64,000 bases of DNA from a virus (IMGVR_UViG_3300031555_003397); one strand, 5' to 3'. Positions 37,891-42,170 are shown, counted from the stretch's first letter. Notes: generated by a model from the letters alone, not told the origin. Translations and numbers: made by a program.

Positions 37891-38020
37891 AGATGCATTT
37901 GGTGTTATTTACGCGCGTCTACCAATTCCGCCACACTCTTCATTTGGGAAGAGTGATGGGATTCGAACCCACAATGTACGTGCTCCTCAAGCATTAACTA
38001 AATAATTGCTGTATGCACCT
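37891..38020 (-). ncRNA. Circularly permuted tRNA-like RNA 2 (YrlA / Y-RNA-like architecture)
   Basis: T-arm GTGGG-TTCGAAT-CCCAT, then CACTCTT-C-CCA-AATG-AAGAGTG as a closed acceptor with CCA, then D-arm TG-GCGG-AATTGGTAGA-CGCG. About 10-bp stem between the ends (AGGTGCAT/ATGCATCT). Confidence 0.5.
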
Positions 38021-38063
38021 AAATGGAATACAAAAACAGTTTTGTCTGTTTCTTAGGAAAGGA

Positions 38064-38198
38064 GCTAGATGCGTTTTGTGTTTTAAAACTCTACCACTTG
38101 AGCTACTCAGCGGAGGTGTCTCCGTCAAGATGGGACTCGAACCCATAACCCTCTGATTTTAAGTCAGTTAACAGTATAGTTGCTGCACGCATCTAAAA
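38064..38198 (-). ncRNA. Circularly permuted tRNA-like RNA 1 (YrlA / Y-RNA-like architecture)
   Basis: Order on the minus strand: 8-bp terminal stem, T-arm ATGGG-TTCGAGT-CCCAT, 10-bp closed acceptor-like hairpin with ACAC loop, D-arm TAGCTCAAGTGGTAGAG, stem return. Own consensus promoter at 38225-38262. Confidence 0.5.
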
Positions 38199-38224
38199 TA
38201 ATTGACAGTTTTTCTTCATTCATT

Positions 38225-38262
38225 TTGTAAATATATTATACATTAAATTTACATAAATTTCA
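38225..38262 (-). promoter_or_regulatory. Conserved promoter copy driving permuted tRNA-like RNA 1
   Basis: Minus strand TTGAAA-17-TATAAT. Confidence 0.5.
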
Positions 38263-38279
38263 AATTTTGGTACCCGAAA

Positions 38280-38897
38280 TTAATAACTCCATCTATATCC
38301 ATAAGCGGTTTTCCGTTTACCTAAACAAACTTCTTGAATATGACTACTTTTTCGTTTACCTAAAAAAGAATAGGCATCAATGATTTTAGGGAAAACTTTA
38401 ATAATTTCTCCCGTATTTTTATCAAGCATTTTTACAATTTTATTTTGCCATTGACCACAATTAGCTTGACGTTGTTGCTTAGTTATTCCACTGTTAGAAA
38501 GAATTAAAGCTATACTTTTATCAGAATATCCAGTAATCTTTTCAATTTCTGAACAATTATATCCTTCAGAATAAAGTTGATTTACTAAATCATAATCCAG
38601 AAAAGGTCTACCATCTCCTCCAATTGTTGCATTATAACCAAATTTAAACGAACCAAAAAATTCAATCCAATATCTTTCTCGCTCATTTAAATTTTCAGTA
38701 GAACATTCCTCAATTTTCTCAATAGAAAAATGTTCAATACCATATTTTATCATTGCATCATATAAAGGGCGTTTTTCATTTCTACTTTTGTTGTAGTCTG
38801 ATAAATGTTCTTTCCATCTACTTTCAATGGTCTTAATGGTCTTTCCAATGTAAATCTTTCCATTTACATCATTAGTAATTTTATAAATGTATGGCAT
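38280..38897 (-). CDS. GIY-YIG homing endonuclease (SegB-like)
   Basis: YIYKITNDVNGKIYIGKT..RWKEH. Confidence 0.65.
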   Translation of the reverse strand: MPYIYKITNDVNGKIYIGKTIKTIESRWKEHLSDYNKSRNEKRPLYDAMIKYGIEHFSIEKIEECSTENLNERERYWIEFFGSFKFGYNATIGGDGRPFLDYDLVNQLYSEGYNCSEIEKITGYSDKSIALILSNSGITKQQRQANCGQWQNKIVKMLDKNTGEIIKVFPKIIDAYSFLGKRKSSHIQEVCLGKRKTAYGYRWSY

Positions 38898-38920
38898 AAT
38901 TAAATACCTCCATATTATTG

Positions 38921-39000
38921 GTAGGGGATATCGGACTTGAACCGATACGAATAACAGTGGTTTTTGAGACCACCCCGTCTACCTATTCCAGCAATCCCCC
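38921..39000 (-). tRNA. tRNA-Leu(CAA) (type II)
   Basis: Anticodon stem GTGGT/ACCAC, loop CTCAAAA, long variable arm. Confidence 0.6.
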
Positions 39001-39345
39001 ATAAGCGTGGGATATTTCTATGTCCGGACTACCCTCCCACCGGGCACCTCTTTCATCCCCGAGGCGGGCTCGTTCTCGTCGAACTAATTTGGACACTAAA
39101 CACCAGCGGTTATGACTCCTATGTACCGCTTTTACTGCTGTGCACGCAGTTGAGGACTAACTTTTCCGGCTACATTTCCTCCCATAGTGTAAGCATCTCG
39201 TCGGATTCGCACCTCTCGGCCAATCCGCAAGTTGAGGAGCAGTAGTTTCCTCTGTAATTTTGTTATCCCAGGGAGAAACATACTAATTACCTGGACCGGA
39301 TTGATTACCGGAACATCGATGTTAAGCCGTGCTAACCACGGTGGT

Positions 39346-39425
39346 GGGCAGGGTGGGTGTCGAGCCCACTACCTTAAAAAGAACGGATTTACAGTCCGCC
39401 GCGTTTGCCGATTCGCTACCTACCC
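39346..39425 (-). tRNA. tRNA-Tyr(GTA) (type II)
   Basis: Acceptor GGGTAGG/CCTGCCC, loop CTGTAAA, long variable arm. Confidence 0.55.
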
Positions 39426-39663
39426 AAATCAATGCGGTTAGGTGGAAGCAACCGCAAACTCCTCTTCGTCTGTCTTTAATTACGCTGTTTTGCCTCAGCA
39501 TCCTTGAAGAACCGGATATCGCCCCTATTCTGTGGCGCGACCGTCGTCATCGTAGATTTTTCCTATTATGGTTTTTAAACCGGTGTTCTAGTCTACGCTC
39601 TCATTCACATTTGGTAGTTTATGCTTTAATGGGCGCCCTCAATACCAAGGAGGACCTCTATGG

Positions 39664-39736
39664 TGGAACCGATGGGACTTGAACCCACAACCTTTTCCTT
39701 GCAAGGGAATTGCGCTCCCAATTGCGCCACGGCCCC
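39664..39736 (-). tRNA. tRNA-Ala(TGC)
   Basis: G3-U70 wobble pair present. Loop CTTGCAA. Confidence 0.65.
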
Positions 39737-40094
39737 ATATATAGTAACCGATTCCGAAGATCCACATCGACTAGCCTTACTCAAAGGTAAAGAGGTTACT
39801 AAATATTGGTAAGAAAAATATAGGTTGAGAATATACCTAGAATTGCTACGGCTTAACACTTTTATGTTTTGAGTGCTTTTCCACTACCTTTTGGGTAGTA
39901 CCGCTCATGCCCGCAATTTGTAGTCACACCACAATGACCACAGGCTTGCTTACGCCTTTAAAGGAACGCTTACTCGATTATCACTCCACTATCAACCTTG
40001 CGGGCTGTTCACGACTGCGACCTCGTTCTAGTTTCGCTTCAATCAAATACAAGATGCTTGTGACACCTTGCATCCCTTATTGCTTACCACTAAG

Positions 40095-40330
40095 GGATTA
40101 GGACACTTTTCATCGTTCCCAATAAGAGATTTTTACTTATAACATCTGTTTTCAACACAGATTGCTCTTCCTATTGAGCTACGGACGCATATAAGAGGCA
40201 AATGTAGCTTTGCCCCGAAGTTTAAGTTTGGGGCGTCCGGTAGGACTCGAACCTACACTAAGTTATGTGACAGCAGACAGACTCTTATCGTAGTTTTCAC
40301 ACCTTTTGAGTGCAAAAATGCTACCCGCCT
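40095..40330 (-). ncRNA. Circularly permuted tRNA-like RNA 3
   Basis: T-arm GTAGG-TTCGAGT-CCTAC, then CGGACGC-C-CCA, a 43-nt loop and GCGTCCG. Then D-arm TAGCTCAATAGGAAGAGC and an anticodon-like hairpin ATCTGT-GTTGAAA-ACAGAT. Confidence 0.4.
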
Positions 40331-40702
40331 GCGTGTGCTTTCCTTTGCTTTCGTACTCACACGGATTCATCCACCATAGCAGATGAACTGGAAGTCGCCC
40401 TTGTTAGCTAAACTCGAACTAACCTTCCTACGGTTTACTGTACCTCAAACCATCCTTTTGCATTGATGCCAGTCGCTTGCGGCAACGAACTTTCTCTGCC
40501 AGTTGGCCCTCGAAAGCTCACTTCACATCATCAAGTTTGAGTTAGGACACGGGGGACGTATCCGAAAAGGTCTTTTCAACCTCAGCCAGTCCCGGCACGT
40601 TTTGCTTGGTTTACCGCTCGTCACGGCGGGGCTTTGTCAGTTTCCCCTTTCCTCTCCCTTACGGGAGTCTATCAGCCAAGCCTGGATAGACAAGCTATCT
40701 GG

Positions 40703-40777
40703 TGATACCACCGGGAATCGAACCCGGACTCTTCAGCTTGAAAGGCTGATGTGTTTACCAGTTTACACCATGGTACC
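40703..40777 (-). tRNA. tRNA-Glu(TTC)
   Basis: Anticodon stem TCAGC/GCTGA, loop CTTTCAA. Confidence 0.65.
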
Positions 40778-41288
40778 ATATAGCAGGATTCTACCTTACC
40801 TGCGCGGTAGCTGTGATTTCAACCGACACAGCCGGCCGCAAGGATTCTCACTAAGGATATTCCTTGTCCCTCCTAAGGTGAGCCAAGATCTTTCGATCAG
40901 CCCAAATCAAAATTCTTTTCTAATCTTTCTACGGCTCCCAAATAAACTTATAGCCGGAATTCTAGCGCTTTTTGGTACTGTTGTATTCGTAATTGGCATT
41001 GACCCATGTCGACGGTTTACCAATCCGAGCCAGGTTCTTCTGGCAGAAAAGAAAAGTTTTTGATGGGATTGCAGATGATATTCGCGACTATCACTTTAAC
41101 GGAACTGCTTATTATTTTTTCGCTTCCGGAGTATTTTATCGTTTGTTACTCAACAAGCACAACACCAACTTTGACCATGCTTCCGTTGCCGAAGCCGACT
41201 GATTTTGCCGTGGATTTTCCTACTGTCGCACGCTCAGTTACGTTTGGTATAGTTTTTAGGGAATTTACTACTACCTTAAACCCAATGG

Positions 41289-41363
41289 CGATACCTACGG
41301 GACTTGAACCCGTGACCTCCGGCGTGACAGGCCGGCGTTCTAACCAACTGAACTAAGATACCA
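41289..41363 (-). tRNA. tRNA-Asp(GTC)
   Basis: Anticodon stem CCGGC/GCCGG, loop CTGTCAC, discriminator G. Confidence 0.7.
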
Positions 41364-41640
41364 TTTACATGGGCCTTACGTCAGCCAACGACTTCCTCTT
41401 CAAGTTCCAATCAGAATTACTGATGCTCAGTCCGTCTTTAAATCTCCCGCGGGCTTTGGATAAGGAAACTTTCATTCCATAAGGCTTGATGAAATTGACC
41501 AAATAGGGCAACGCCTCACAATTCCCCTAAGAAACCAAAGACATCCAAATAAGAACCTAACCTGCCATTCCGCCAACTTCTATGTATGAGGTTCAAGAGT
41601 GGTCTATGACTCAGCGTTTCTTATTCTTTTCTAACCTTAT
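41364..41640 (-). ncRNA. Roughly 270-nt noncoding leader between a consensus promoter and tRNA-Asp
   Basis: Promoter at 41640-41690. No ORF. Confidence 0.3.
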
Positions 41641-41690
41641 GTATATATTATAACTCAAAACTTCAAAATTTTCAAACTTTTTCATTTTGA
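41640..41690 (-). promoter_or_regulatory. Conserved promoter copy (leader + tRNA-Asp)
   Basis: Minus strand TTGAAA-17-TATAAT. Confidence 0.5.
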
Positions 41691-41858
41691 AATTTCGGAA
41701 CTGGTTGGCTGACTTGTGCCTCTATTGGTCTCGACCAGTTAGCTGAAACCAGGGAGTTTACCTATAACGTCGCTCCTCCCCTTTAACCACGGAGATTTCT
41801 CGTTCATCTCAAACGCTTCCAATTGCCAGTCAAGCAGGGCGAAGAACCATTCCCATGG

Positions 41859-41943
41859 CGGACCGACCGAGAATCGAACTCAGACTACCCTCTCGAGTAG
41901 GAAGGATTAGCAATCCTTTGGGATACCATTACCCCACCGGTCC
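41859..41943 (-). tRNA. tRNA-Ser(GCT) (type II)
   Basis: Anticodon stem AAGGA/TCCTT, loop TTGCTAA, long variable arm, G73. Confidence 0.65.
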
Positions 41944-41949
41944 AAATGA

Positions 41950-42170
41950 TGTGGGTTTTTCCTTGAAGAGTCTACCAAGCCCACCGTGGCCCATATTCAT
42001 TTATATACCGCTCCTCATGTGCAACTCACATGGCGCCGTCGCGCTGGACTCATGGCCATCCGAGCGGATTCTGGCGGATGGTGAGGGACTCGAACCCCCA
42101 TGTCGGTTCGTTAGCCGACACACAAGTTTTCAAGACTAGGCCGTTATAACCATTTCGGTAACCATCCATC
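41950..42170 (-). ncRNA. Circularly permuted tRNA-like RNA 4 (divergent)
   Basis: T-arm GGGGG-TTCGAGT-CCCTC, then ACCATCCG-CCAGAATCCGCT-CGGATGG as a closed acceptor hairpin with CCA in the loop. Confidence 0.35.

Follow-up and report, generated by a model that had tools for sequence, protein, structure and literature searches.

In the YrlA family of bacterial Y RNAs (RF02553), a transfer RNA (tRNA)-like domain composed of a T-arm, a closed acceptor stem and a D-arm is mounted on a stem made by the RNA's own ends, and the partner protein, a TROVE Ro60 ortholog, is encoded within ~4 kb on the same strand. The topology and the Ro60-binding box, GNCGAA(N0-1)G, are those described by Chen 2014 (PMC4201824) and by the YrlA structure (bioRxiv 10.1101/312249), with which the Rfam YrlA consensus agrees. 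Here we analyse a 64,000-nucleotide stretch of viral DNA (IMGVR_UViG_3300031555_003397; the whole stretch is referred to as the window), in which three permuted tRNA-like RNAs, elements A, B and E, lie within a tRNA array on the same strand as a gene for a DUF2828 protein. All three are members of a family of small RNAs that is widespread in phages and absent from Rfam 15. The family is structured, covaries, contains an invariant box, ACAGCAA, and is tied by position and strand to DUF2828. We consider it probable (about 0.7) that A, B and E are members of a Y-RNA-like partner family, built on an ACAGCAA module, for this Ro60-like phage protein.

The resemblance to YrlA lies in the topology: in A, B and E, too, the two ends of the RNA pair into a stem that bears a T-arm, a closed acceptor and a D-arm. 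In common with bacterial Y RNAs, the family has a conserved single-stranded box beside the 5' strand of the end-paired stem that carries the tRNA-like domain, is encoded near, and on the strand of, the gene for a Ro60-fold protein, and comprises several RNAs per locus, including small ones that lack a tRNA body (compare YrlB). A first-pass annotation, made from the sequence alone, had read the elements as YrlA RNAs; the topology stands, but membership of that family does not. In place of the YrlA box GNCGAA(N0-1)G (PMC4201824), ACAGCAA is found in 74/74 short RNAs of the family; the partner gene is DUF2828 and not a TROVE Ro60 ortholog, with adjacency holding at the level of the family; the acceptor is almost always exactly 7 base pairs (bp); and many members keep a closed anticodon-like arm, so that the chain ends exit between the D-arm and the anticodon arm. 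Three tRNA-body topologies, short forms that mimic the anticodon loop, and copies placed inside tRNA arrays further distinguish the family from YrlA. The YrlA gathering score of 69 bits was not reached by A (24.2), B (24.1) or a piece embedded in a GOLLD RNA of the window (30.1), and family members elsewhere scored 25-46 bits against the YrlA model or gave nothing at E <= 1. Assignment of A, B and E to YrlA was rejected on these sub-threshold scores and on the absence of the box GNCGAA(N)G. Of the checks proposed in the first-pass annotation, the YrlA model gave sub-threshold matches only, and folding with RNAfold formed the terminal helices.

Two-piece permuted transfer-messenger RNA (tmRNA) is likewise encoded by a permuted gene and has an acceptor completed from two RNA pieces after processing; the RNAs described here, in contrast, have a full D-arm and no tag reading frame. 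ARAGORN identified no tmRNA in the window, and the Rfam model tmRNA_permuted reached 18.4 bits against a gathering score of 47, elsewhere in the window. GOLLD and ROOL share the same phage tRNA-island habitat, but both are large RNAs that form multimers and for which no protein partner is known, whereas the module RNAs are 50-150 nucleotides (nt) long and tied to one protein family.

Three permuted tRNA-like RNAs in the tRNA array

The coordinates of all module elements refer to the minus strand. The elements, together with the basis of each assignment (R1 is the covariance model described in the next section), are:

37889-38022, minus strand: element A, permuted tRNA-like module RNA (sequence, fold and R1)
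38065-38196, minus strand: element B, permuted tRNA-like module RNA (R1 and fold)
38235-38263, minus strand: predicted sigma-70-type promoter TTGAAA-17-TATAAT, 11/12 consensus positions, ~38 nt upstream of element B
42634-42748, minus strand: element E, permuted tRNA-like module RNA, directly after the CCA of tRNA-Ile (sequence, fold and R1)

Element A opens with the terminal-helix strand TAGGTGCAT, ACAGCAA, TTATTTA, a variable hairpin and the T-arm GTGGG-TTCGAAT-CCCAT, and continues with CACTCTT-C-CCA-AATG-AAGAGTG, TG, the D-arm GCGG-AATTGGTAGA-CGC, TAAATAA, an A-rich strand and the second terminal-helix strand, ATGCATCTA. TTATTTA and TAAATAA form a helix, the 7-bp acceptor is closed by C-CCA-AATG, and the D-arm is of the Leu type. 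This is the element that the first-pass annotation had considered its cleanest, and it reads as claimed there, including the terminal helix TAGGTGCAT/ATGCATCTA. The sequence is unchanged in the relatives L171 and L172, while L173 contains a homolog that is 75% identical. In the L173 homolog the 7-bp acceptor and the N-CCA-N4 loop are kept (A-CCA-TAAT) on a stem, TCTTCCC/GGGAAGA, that is wholly unlike that of A. Another close relative, L069, has no element A. A blastn search with 37780-38280 gave no match among deposited phages, and the A-like pattern of a T-arm with a Leu-type D-arm had zero matches in viral contigs.

In element B the terminal-helix strand TAGATGCGT is followed by GCAGCAA, the anticodon-like hairpin CTGA-CTTAAAA-TCAG, a T-arm, a 10-bp closed acceptor-like stem, the D-arm GCTC-AAGTGGTA-GAGT, an A-rich strand and the returning strand of the terminal helix; CCA is absent. 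The copy in L069 (9381-9512) differs by a single base, at position 34 of the anticodon-like triplet (UAA versus GAA). Element E, which was found by scanning for T-arms outside annotated tRNAs, consists of the helix strand TAGACGCTT, ACAGCAA, the T-arm AAAAG-TTCGAGT-CTTTT, the acceptor TATTTCA-G-CCA-TCAAAT-TGAAATA, the D-arm GCAC-AAGTGGTA-GTGC and the helix strand AAGCGTCTA. Its counterparts in L173 and L176 carry two substitutions, one of which, A to G in the acceptor 5' strand, converts an A-U into a G-U pair and retains the pairing.

All three elements therefore enclose a T-arm, a closed acceptor and a D-arm in a terminal helix of 9-10 bp, which is formed in the minimum free energy fold (RNAfold) of each; the acceptor is 7 bp except for the 10-bp stem of B. 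They also have common ends, 5' TAGRYGCNT-RCAGCAA and an A-rich stretch ahead of the 3' strand. The count of at least four such elements between 37891 and 42170 was too high, since only A and B are members in that interval; a probable third, at 40140-40283, has no module, and E lies outside the range. The consensus promoter ascribed to one element was found again, ahead of B.

A widespread family built on a constant module

Searching IMG/VR with a pattern that requires CAGCAA, a T-arm and a D-loop in this order (CAGCAA..GGTTCGARTCC..GTGGTAG) returned 81 viral loci. Nearly all of these contain the same RNA type, and in ~60 distinct sequences an uninterrupted terminal helix of 7-11 bp, quite different in sequence from one RNA to another, pairs the bases just before CAGCAA with the 3' end. 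The covariance model R1 was seeded with 11 unrelated IMG/VR sequences and no sequence from the window. It detected B (46.9 bits, E = 1.6e-9), A (34.0 bits, E = 3.5e-6) and E (29.9 bits, E = 3.9e-5) and gave no other significant match in the window. The unit order and end helix that had been described for this region are hence real for A and B, far beyond chance. Because MAFFT misaligned the 3' ends of the RNAs, the models were built from cleaner subsets and the remainder was aligned by Infernal. Across 85 sources R1 recovered 106 copies representing 83 distinct sequences, often with several per contig. In the resulting alignment 93.4% of cells are paired, versus 59% after shuffling and 34-45% when the partners are slid; changes on both sides are seen at 28 of the 30 pairs, and all five helices (terminal, anticodon-like hairpin, T-arm, closed acceptor and D-arm) covary. 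A, B and E each have a terminal helix of at least 7 bp whose 5' strand is followed within 0-3 nt by ACAGCAA, and each matches this window-free model significantly.

The acceptor is 7 bp in 66/81 members and its loop is usually 4-7 nt without CCA. N-CCA nevertheless follows the acceptor 3' strand in ~8/81, versus ~1.3 expected. What stays constant is the module and not the tRNA body: a helix of 7-11 bp joins the two ends (5'-AGR.../...YCU-3'), single-stranded ACAGCAA follows 0-3 nt past its 5' strand, and the 3' strand is preceded by an A-rich stretch. A second model, R2, was seeded with 12 short RNAs from six cultured phages and the locus L067, and its best matches in the window are short module copies, every one on the minus strand. 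Among 74 distinct short RNAs the ACAGCAA box is essentially invariant, the helix is 99.8% paired with covariation at all 7 pairs, and the outer pairs are 5'-AGR / YCU-3'. The module helix includes G-U pairs, which indicates that pairing takes place in RNA rather than in DNA.

The cargo carried by the module varies, and may be an anticodon-stem-loop mimic alone, a circularly permuted cloverleaf with a closed acceptor, or a whole tRNA. A tRNA body, where there is one, takes one of three topologies: it can be permuted, it can be unpermuted and carry the module in its anticodon loop (L067), or it can be whole and bracketed by the module. Just upstream of the DUF2828 gene of L067 (1-660), four module RNAs stand in a row, two of them short and two of them unpermuted tRNA-like genes. 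The short forms are 50-60 nt and contain only the helix, ACAGCA(A), a short insert and the A-rich strand; in the tRNA-like genes the acceptor ends are open, and the loop-closed module replaces the anticodon loop. L067 also gives a weak tmRNA-like match, at 147-226. At gathering and at permissive Rfam thresholds the elements produced sub-threshold YrlA and tRNA matches only, and the short RNAs of the phages FO1a, Rumpelstiltskin and LMTA-34 matched no Rfam family.

The order of the halves, 3' ahead of 5', could be taken to mean that these are true circularly permuted (split) tRNA genes that mature, circularised or nicked, into a chargeable decoding tRNA. The permuted tRNA genes of Cyanidioschyzon merolae and Thermofilum pendens also have the 3' half first, an acceptor that is closed in the primary transcript and termini that pair. 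Consistent with such genes are the acceptors of exactly 7 bp, the N-CCA encoded in A, E and the L173 homolog, the 7-nt anticodon-like loop with U33 and A37 kept by about half of the members, and an RNA/DNA ligase-like open reading frame (ORF) at 60082-61185. The terminal helices, however, are continuous over 9-10 bp and lack the bulge-helix-bulge of the C. merolae and T. pendens genes, and the ends instead carry a conserved, protein-binding-like module. Furthermore, joining the ends of A or E rebuilds no 7-nt anticodon loop, most acceptors are closed by loops without CCA, the module is found also on 50-80-nt RNAs that have no tRNA body, and the array already holds 36 ordinary tRNAs. To our knowledge the splicing endonuclease is absent from bacteria, which we also count against this explanation, and we regard it as very unlikely. 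The suggestion in the first-pass annotation of a split decoding tRNA is unlikely for two of these reasons, the lack in A and E of an anticodon loop to reconstitute and the occurrence of the module on the 50-80-nt RNAs.

A Ro60-like protein encoded on the same strand

The protein gene to which the family is linked is, in the window:

55338-56852, minus strand: DUF2828 + DUF7788 gene, 504 amino acids (PF11443, 3.8e-47; PF25043, 5.2e-33; PHROG 850 'RNA-binding protein')

Its mechanically called ORF reaches a TTG at 56906, whereas homologs, of 504-509 amino acids, begin at the ATG at 56852. The predicted fold consists of a helical-repeat domain followed by a vWA domain with the metal-ion-dependent adhesion site DxSxS, in which D313, S315 and S317 are invariant. 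Comparison with the PDB by Foldseek gave three matches at E < 1e-3 (4.9e-6, 2.6e-5 and 3.1e-5), all of which are Ro60 proteins with full-length alignments: Rsr (2nvo), Xenopus Ro (1yvr) and human Ro60 (9nf8). For a Listeria phage homolog Rsr is the best HHpred match, and the protein is present in virions (PMC12282133). In the window protein the Pfam domain TROVE is absent, only PF11443 and PF25043 being found, and a phmmer search against the PDB returned no match. On its modelled fold, the DUF2828 protein is a relative of Ro60 and not an ortholog. Of the Ro60 ortholog that had been placed 17 kb from the elements, a Ro60-like protein on the same strand, 12.6-17.3 kb away, is confirmed; a TROVE ortholog is not, as the protein is DUF2828 + DUF7788 and its likeness to Ro60 is one of fold and of the HHpred match of PMC12282133.

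Homologs of DUF2828 occur in at least 704 deposited phage genomes and are named 'Ro-like RNA binding protein' in GenBank for cluster L mycobacteriophages. In addition to the latter, the phages concerned include those of the Felix O1 type, the Listeria P100/A511 type used in biocontrol, staphylococcal and enterococcal therapy phages, and Campylobacter phages. When loci were selected by the RNA, the DUF2828 gene was present in the ~10 kb analysed per locus in 19/81, often adjacent. Modules were found at most 600 nt from the gene in 8 of the 10 cultured-phage loci examined, that of Vibrio VH7D being doubtful. Thus three short RNAs and one permuted tRNA-like RNA are located downstream of gp42 in FO1a (Felix O1-type), and two short RNAs and one tRNA-like RNA downstream of gp54 in Rumpelstiltskin; modules stand upstream of the gene in Listeria LMTA-34, Tsamsa, Campylobacter NCTC12673 and Enterococcus Porthos, and downstream of it in Staphylococcus S-CoN_Ph3. 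Selection by the protein gave the same association, with 80 DUF2828 loci containing 104 R2 matches at E <= 0.1, in 69/80 loci, of which 104/104 are on the strand of the gene and ~85 within 450 nt upstream of its start codon. Chance matches would be divided between the strands and spread over 11 kb, in contrast with the single strand and the upstream clustering observed.

The one related statement in the literature surveyed is a conjecture that the Listeria phage gene may have Y RNAs among the unannotated transcripts in its vicinity (PMC12282133). In LMTA-34 (L084), a ROOL RNA just below threshold (88.5 versus 99.1 bits) lies at 2461-3012, ~1 kb upstream of the DUF2828 gene. Its position corresponds to that of the 'most transcribed, unannotated' region of phage CKA15 (26,236-26,727), which was not identified as ROOL in PMC12282133.

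These data bear on the possibility that the elements are functionless, either chance juxtapositions or the decaying remnants of tandem tRNAs in which the T-arm of one is followed by the D-arm of the next. Origin from a dimeric tRNA is an accepted idea for YrlA (10.1101/312249), one pattern match in L067 spanned two neighbouring tRNA-like genes, and element A is missing from its close relative L069. Neither chance nor decay would account for the low E-values obtained with the models, the covariation of five helices across distant phages, acceptor strands that are complementary to each other, an invariant ACAGCAA, or matches confined to the strand of the gene and associated with DUF2828, and we find it hardly credible.

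Since most copies near the gene occupy its 5' leader, the module might act only in cis, as an RNA processing, stability or termination site in tRNA operons, as some other control element of the DUF2828 leader, or, at the DNA level, as the inverted repeats of a small mobile element. Several window copies begin 0-2 nt after a tRNA CCA, two bracket whole tRNAs in the manner of a leader and a trailer, and copies have been gained and lost among relatives. A purely cis-acting signal is unlikely, however, given the many copies found per genome, distant from the gene and with predicted promoters of their own, and the covariation of an elaborate, conserved cargo. Moreover, autoregulation usually takes the form of a leader copy of the site bound in a trans-acting RNA, and such a copy is consistent with a DUF2828-binding RNA. 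DNA-level inverted repeats were rejected because G-U pairs and the strict strandedness (104/104) favour pairing in RNA. RNase III sites were rejected as well, the helix of 7-11 bp being too short.

The RNAs could also act in trans with another partner, namely RtcB, an RNA ligase, the CCA-adding enzyme or a host protein, DUF2828 being a mere neighbour. Genes for RtcB, RNA ligase and the CCA-adding enzyme, as well as ROOL and drum RNAs, do occur in the same neighbourhoods (Listeria phage and phage CBB). The RNAs, on the other hand, are found immediately upstream of DUF2828 in loci that have no other gene in common, and the DUF2828 fold is that of the one known family that binds just such RNA, so that we attach only a small probability to a different partner.

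Several observations weigh against DUF2828 as the partner of A, B and E. The AlphaFold model is of low confidence (predicted local distance difference test 64, predicted template modelling (TM) score 0.51; shallow alignment), and its TM-scores to Ro60 are ~0.3; a further profile-based homolog search recovered the same close clade and added no diversity, and hence the structure model stayed at low confidence. A DUF2828 profile gave no significant match to Ro60 in the PDB (1yvp, E = 0.09; 9nen, E = 0.32), the matches covering the vWA part only. Pectobacterium phage CBB has no module near its DUF2828 gene. In the window itself A, B and E are on the strand of the gene but 12.6-17.3 kb from it, and the only adjacent copy is the one in the leader, whose box is a variant, ACAGCGAA, and whose R2 score is weak. 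The R2 E-values of single window copies are marginal (0.006-0.6). The alignments that were scored for covariation were fitted to the models, which favours pairing, although the margins are large. Finally, the 80 protein-selected loci include many close relatives and overstate independence, for which the cultured-phage set compensates.

A predicted partnership and its possible function

By analogy with Ro60 and the GNCGAA stem of Y RNAs, the module is the predicted binding site of DUF2828. The tRNA-like cargo would be the effector end: held by the protein, it would offer factors that recognise tRNA either an anticodon loop or the shape of a tRNA, as proposed for YrlA. A copy of the module in the leader would autoregulate the DUF2828 gene. 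The RNAs may be transcribed along with the tRNA array or from promoters of their own. At 42748, 43760, 50854 and 51148 (minus strand) the 5' end of a module RNA lies 0-2 nt past the CCA of the preceding tRNA (Ile, Lys-UUU, the CUA suppressor and Leu-UAA), and these four 5' ends would thus come from tRNA 3' processing.

In A and E, RNase P might cut where the acceptor 5' strand begins, with 3' trimming to the encoded N-CCA; opening would leave two RNA pieces separated by a nick, with a free CCA end and held together by the module helix, and not a decoding tRNA. The RNase P idea in the first-pass annotation has a precedent in the YrlA of Mycobacterium smegmatis, the sole YrlA with a 7-bp acceptor, which in vivo is cleaved by RNase P and acquires CCA (PMC4201824). 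The retention of N-CCA in the L173 homolog despite its different stem, together with the over-representation of N-CCA in the family, supports such opening, which we consider plausible on this analysis.

An anticodon-like loop of 7 nt occurs in about half of the tRNA-like members, and of these loops 34/39 have U33 and 35/39 have A37. In the short RNAs an anticodon-stem-loop mimic (5-bp stem, 7-nt loop C-U-NNN-A-A) is present in 34/74, whereas shuffles average 3 and never exceed 11, and the commonest triplets are GUU, UUU and GCU. The triplet is the most variable site: in two elements it is the only place at which near-identical relatives differ, and the CUG-N-AAA loop of one IMG/VR clade shows each of the four bases at N (position 35). 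This variability suggests, speculatively, that the anticodon is the part displayed, perhaps to anticodon nucleases or modification enzymes. A tentative extension, which we think improbable, is a counter-defence role: tRNA parts displayed on a Ro60-like scaffold would serve as decoys for host anticodon nucleases or other defences that target tRNA, or as sensors or repair handles against them. In its favour are the fastest-changing triplet, triplets (UUU, GUU, GUA and GCU) that are typical of nuclease targets, and the packaging of the DUF2828 homolog in Listeria phage virions (PMC12282133). More speculatively still, the CCA members opened by RNase P could be aminoacylated as anticodon-less two-piece tRNAs.

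Our survey of the literature on DUF2828, YrlA, Ro-like phage proteins and phage permuted tRNAs contained no description of the ACAGCAA family; subscription journals were mostly outside its scope, so that a prior report is possible. As an architecture and a principle, a Ro-like protein with a modular RNA that includes a tRNA mimic is already known. Judged by Rfam 15 and the literature that could be searched, the features that appear to be new are the recognition box, the protein family, the three ways in which tRNA and module are joined, the anticodon-loop short forms and the placement in tRNA arrays. DUF2828 thereby gains a defined candidate RNA ligand with an invariant box, which makes the question of its partner testable, and the Ro60/Y-RNA principle, a protein ring with a modular RNA carrying a tRNA mimic, would extend to a second protein family with a different box. 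The three tRNA-module topologies bear on the origin of Y RNAs from tRNAs. For annotation, unannotated gaps beside the DUF2828 gene contain small RNAs, and phage arrays include predicted 'tRNA genes' that form part of other RNAs, here those for tRNA-Gly (45247-45320) and tRNA-Thr (43663-43734). Should the cargo indeed act on tRNA-targeting defences, it would represent a new class of phage counter-defence.

Further copies of the module in the window

The window contains ~10 module copies: three short RNAs, three permuted tRNA-like RNAs, two around whole tRNAs, one with another insert and one in a gene leader. The seven other than A, B and E, which the first-pass annotation had missed, are:

42987-43133, minus strand: module RNA with a 120-nt insert of another kind, terminal helix TAGACCCGT/ATGGGTCTA, then TT-ACAGCAA
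43651-43760, minus strand: module around a complete tRNA-Thr(UGU)-like cloverleaf, 2 nt after the CCA of tRNA-Lys, terminal helix AGGCGCT/GGCGCCT, then TG-CAGCAA
45231-45344, minus strand: module around a complete tRNA-Gly(UCC)-like cloverleaf, terminal helix AAGACGC/GCGTCTT, then AT-ACAGCAA; R2 16.5 bits
47456-47532, minus strand: short module RNA, TTAGACGG-AC-ACAGCAA...CCGTCTAG; R2 19.4 bits
50793-50854, minus strand: short module RNA right after the amber-suppressor tRNA-CUA, AGACGC-AC-ACAGCAA, mimic ACAAT-CTGCTAA-ATTGT, GCGTCT
51082-51148, minus strand: short module RNA, 2 nt beyond the tRNA-Leu(UAA) CCA, AGACAC-TC-ACAGCAA, mimic TTAGA-CTGTAAA-TCTGA, GTGTCT; R2 22.4 bits, E = 0.037
56898-56962, minus strand: variant module in the leader of the DUF2828 gene, promoter TTGAAA-17-TATAAT, AGGCGCG-A-ACAGCGAA...TGCGCCT; R2 18.6 bits

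In L173 the RNA at 42987-43133 has two substitutions, which are compensatory (T-A to C-G) within a hairpin of the insert. The copy at 45231-45344 differs from those of L173 (3229-3342) and L176 (3044-3157) by only two substitutions, which change the anticodon from UCC to GUC. The enclosed tRNA-Thr(UGU)-like (43663-43734) and tRNA-Gly(UCC)-like (45247-45320) sequences are AT-rich, lack CCA and duplicate other tRNAs of the array, and these two ARAGORN predictions may not be ordinary tRNA genes. The short RNA at 47456-47532 has its own predicted promoter, TTGATT-17-TATAAT, and a small ORF downstream. The top R2 match in the window is 50793-50854 (26.3 bits, E = 0.006, filters off), and the anticodon-stem-loop mimics of the short copies in the window present the triplets GCU and GUA. 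The leader copy lies ~45 nt upstream of the ATG, in the position occupied by modules in 69/80 other DUF2828 loci; its box includes the CGAA core of Y RNAs, and it is the only copy to deviate in this way.

Two pieces with tRNA-like features fall outside the family. The first, probably the third element of the first-pass annotation, is:

40140-40283, minus strand: permuted tRNA-like piece, not a member, within the linker of the GOLLD RNA

It comprises a T-arm, CGGACGC-C-CCA, a 46-nt hairpin insert, GCGTCCG, a D-arm and an anticodon-like hairpin, after which there is no second T-arm. The GOLLD-embedded tRNAs known to us are ordinary ones. The piece at 40140-40283 has neither a terminal helix nor the ACAGCAA module, and its YrlA score (30.1 bits) is below threshold; the presence of tRNAs within GOLLD linkers is already known (PMC12286853). 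The second is an orphan tRNA 3' half at 46541-46590 (minus strand), GGTGG-TTCGATT-CCACC, CGGAGGT-A-CCA, which directly follows a PD-(D/E)XK endonuclease ORF and for which no matching 5' strand was found anywhere in the window. A further copy had been anticipated at 46541-46600, where there is accordingly only this T-arm and acceptor 3' strand without a 5' partner. Nor did copies turn up at 35400-35540 or 35617-35780, regions with no T-arm and no module, in which the sole R1 match (E = 0.86) overlaps a tRNA-Arg.

Genomic setting

The window is phage-like, and its close relatives are metagenome contigs of ~149.7 kb. ARAGORN predicts 36 tRNA genes at 35318-51226, all on the minus strand, through which GIY-YIG and PD-(D/E)XK endonuclease genes are scattered. 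RNAs of the array include:

50856-50930, minus strand: amber-suppressor tRNA-CUA (ARAGORN)
44373-45044: ROOL RNA (Rfam)
39822-40333: GOLLD RNA (Rfam)
49935-50061: drum RNA (Rfam)

The amber-reading tRNA-CUA fits with TAG recoding. Within 5 kb of the DUF2828 gene are an ATP-dependent DNA/RNA ligase-like ORF (60082-61185, plus strand) and a calcineurin-like phosphoesterase (53832-54386, minus strand), which are possible RNA-repair partners.

Long spacers without ORFs separate some of the tRNAs, with a G+C content of 45-50% versus 27-30% in the endonuclease ORFs:

39001-39341: ORF-free spacer
39426-39660: ORF-free spacer
40334-40699: ORF-free spacer
40778-41285: ORF-free spacer
41363-41855: ORF-free spacer
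35393-35538: ORF-free spacer
35617-35782: ORF-free spacer

Further structured RNAs may lie inside these spacers. A DUF3800-XI match just under threshold (32.1 versus 37.8 bits) is located at 40868-40904.

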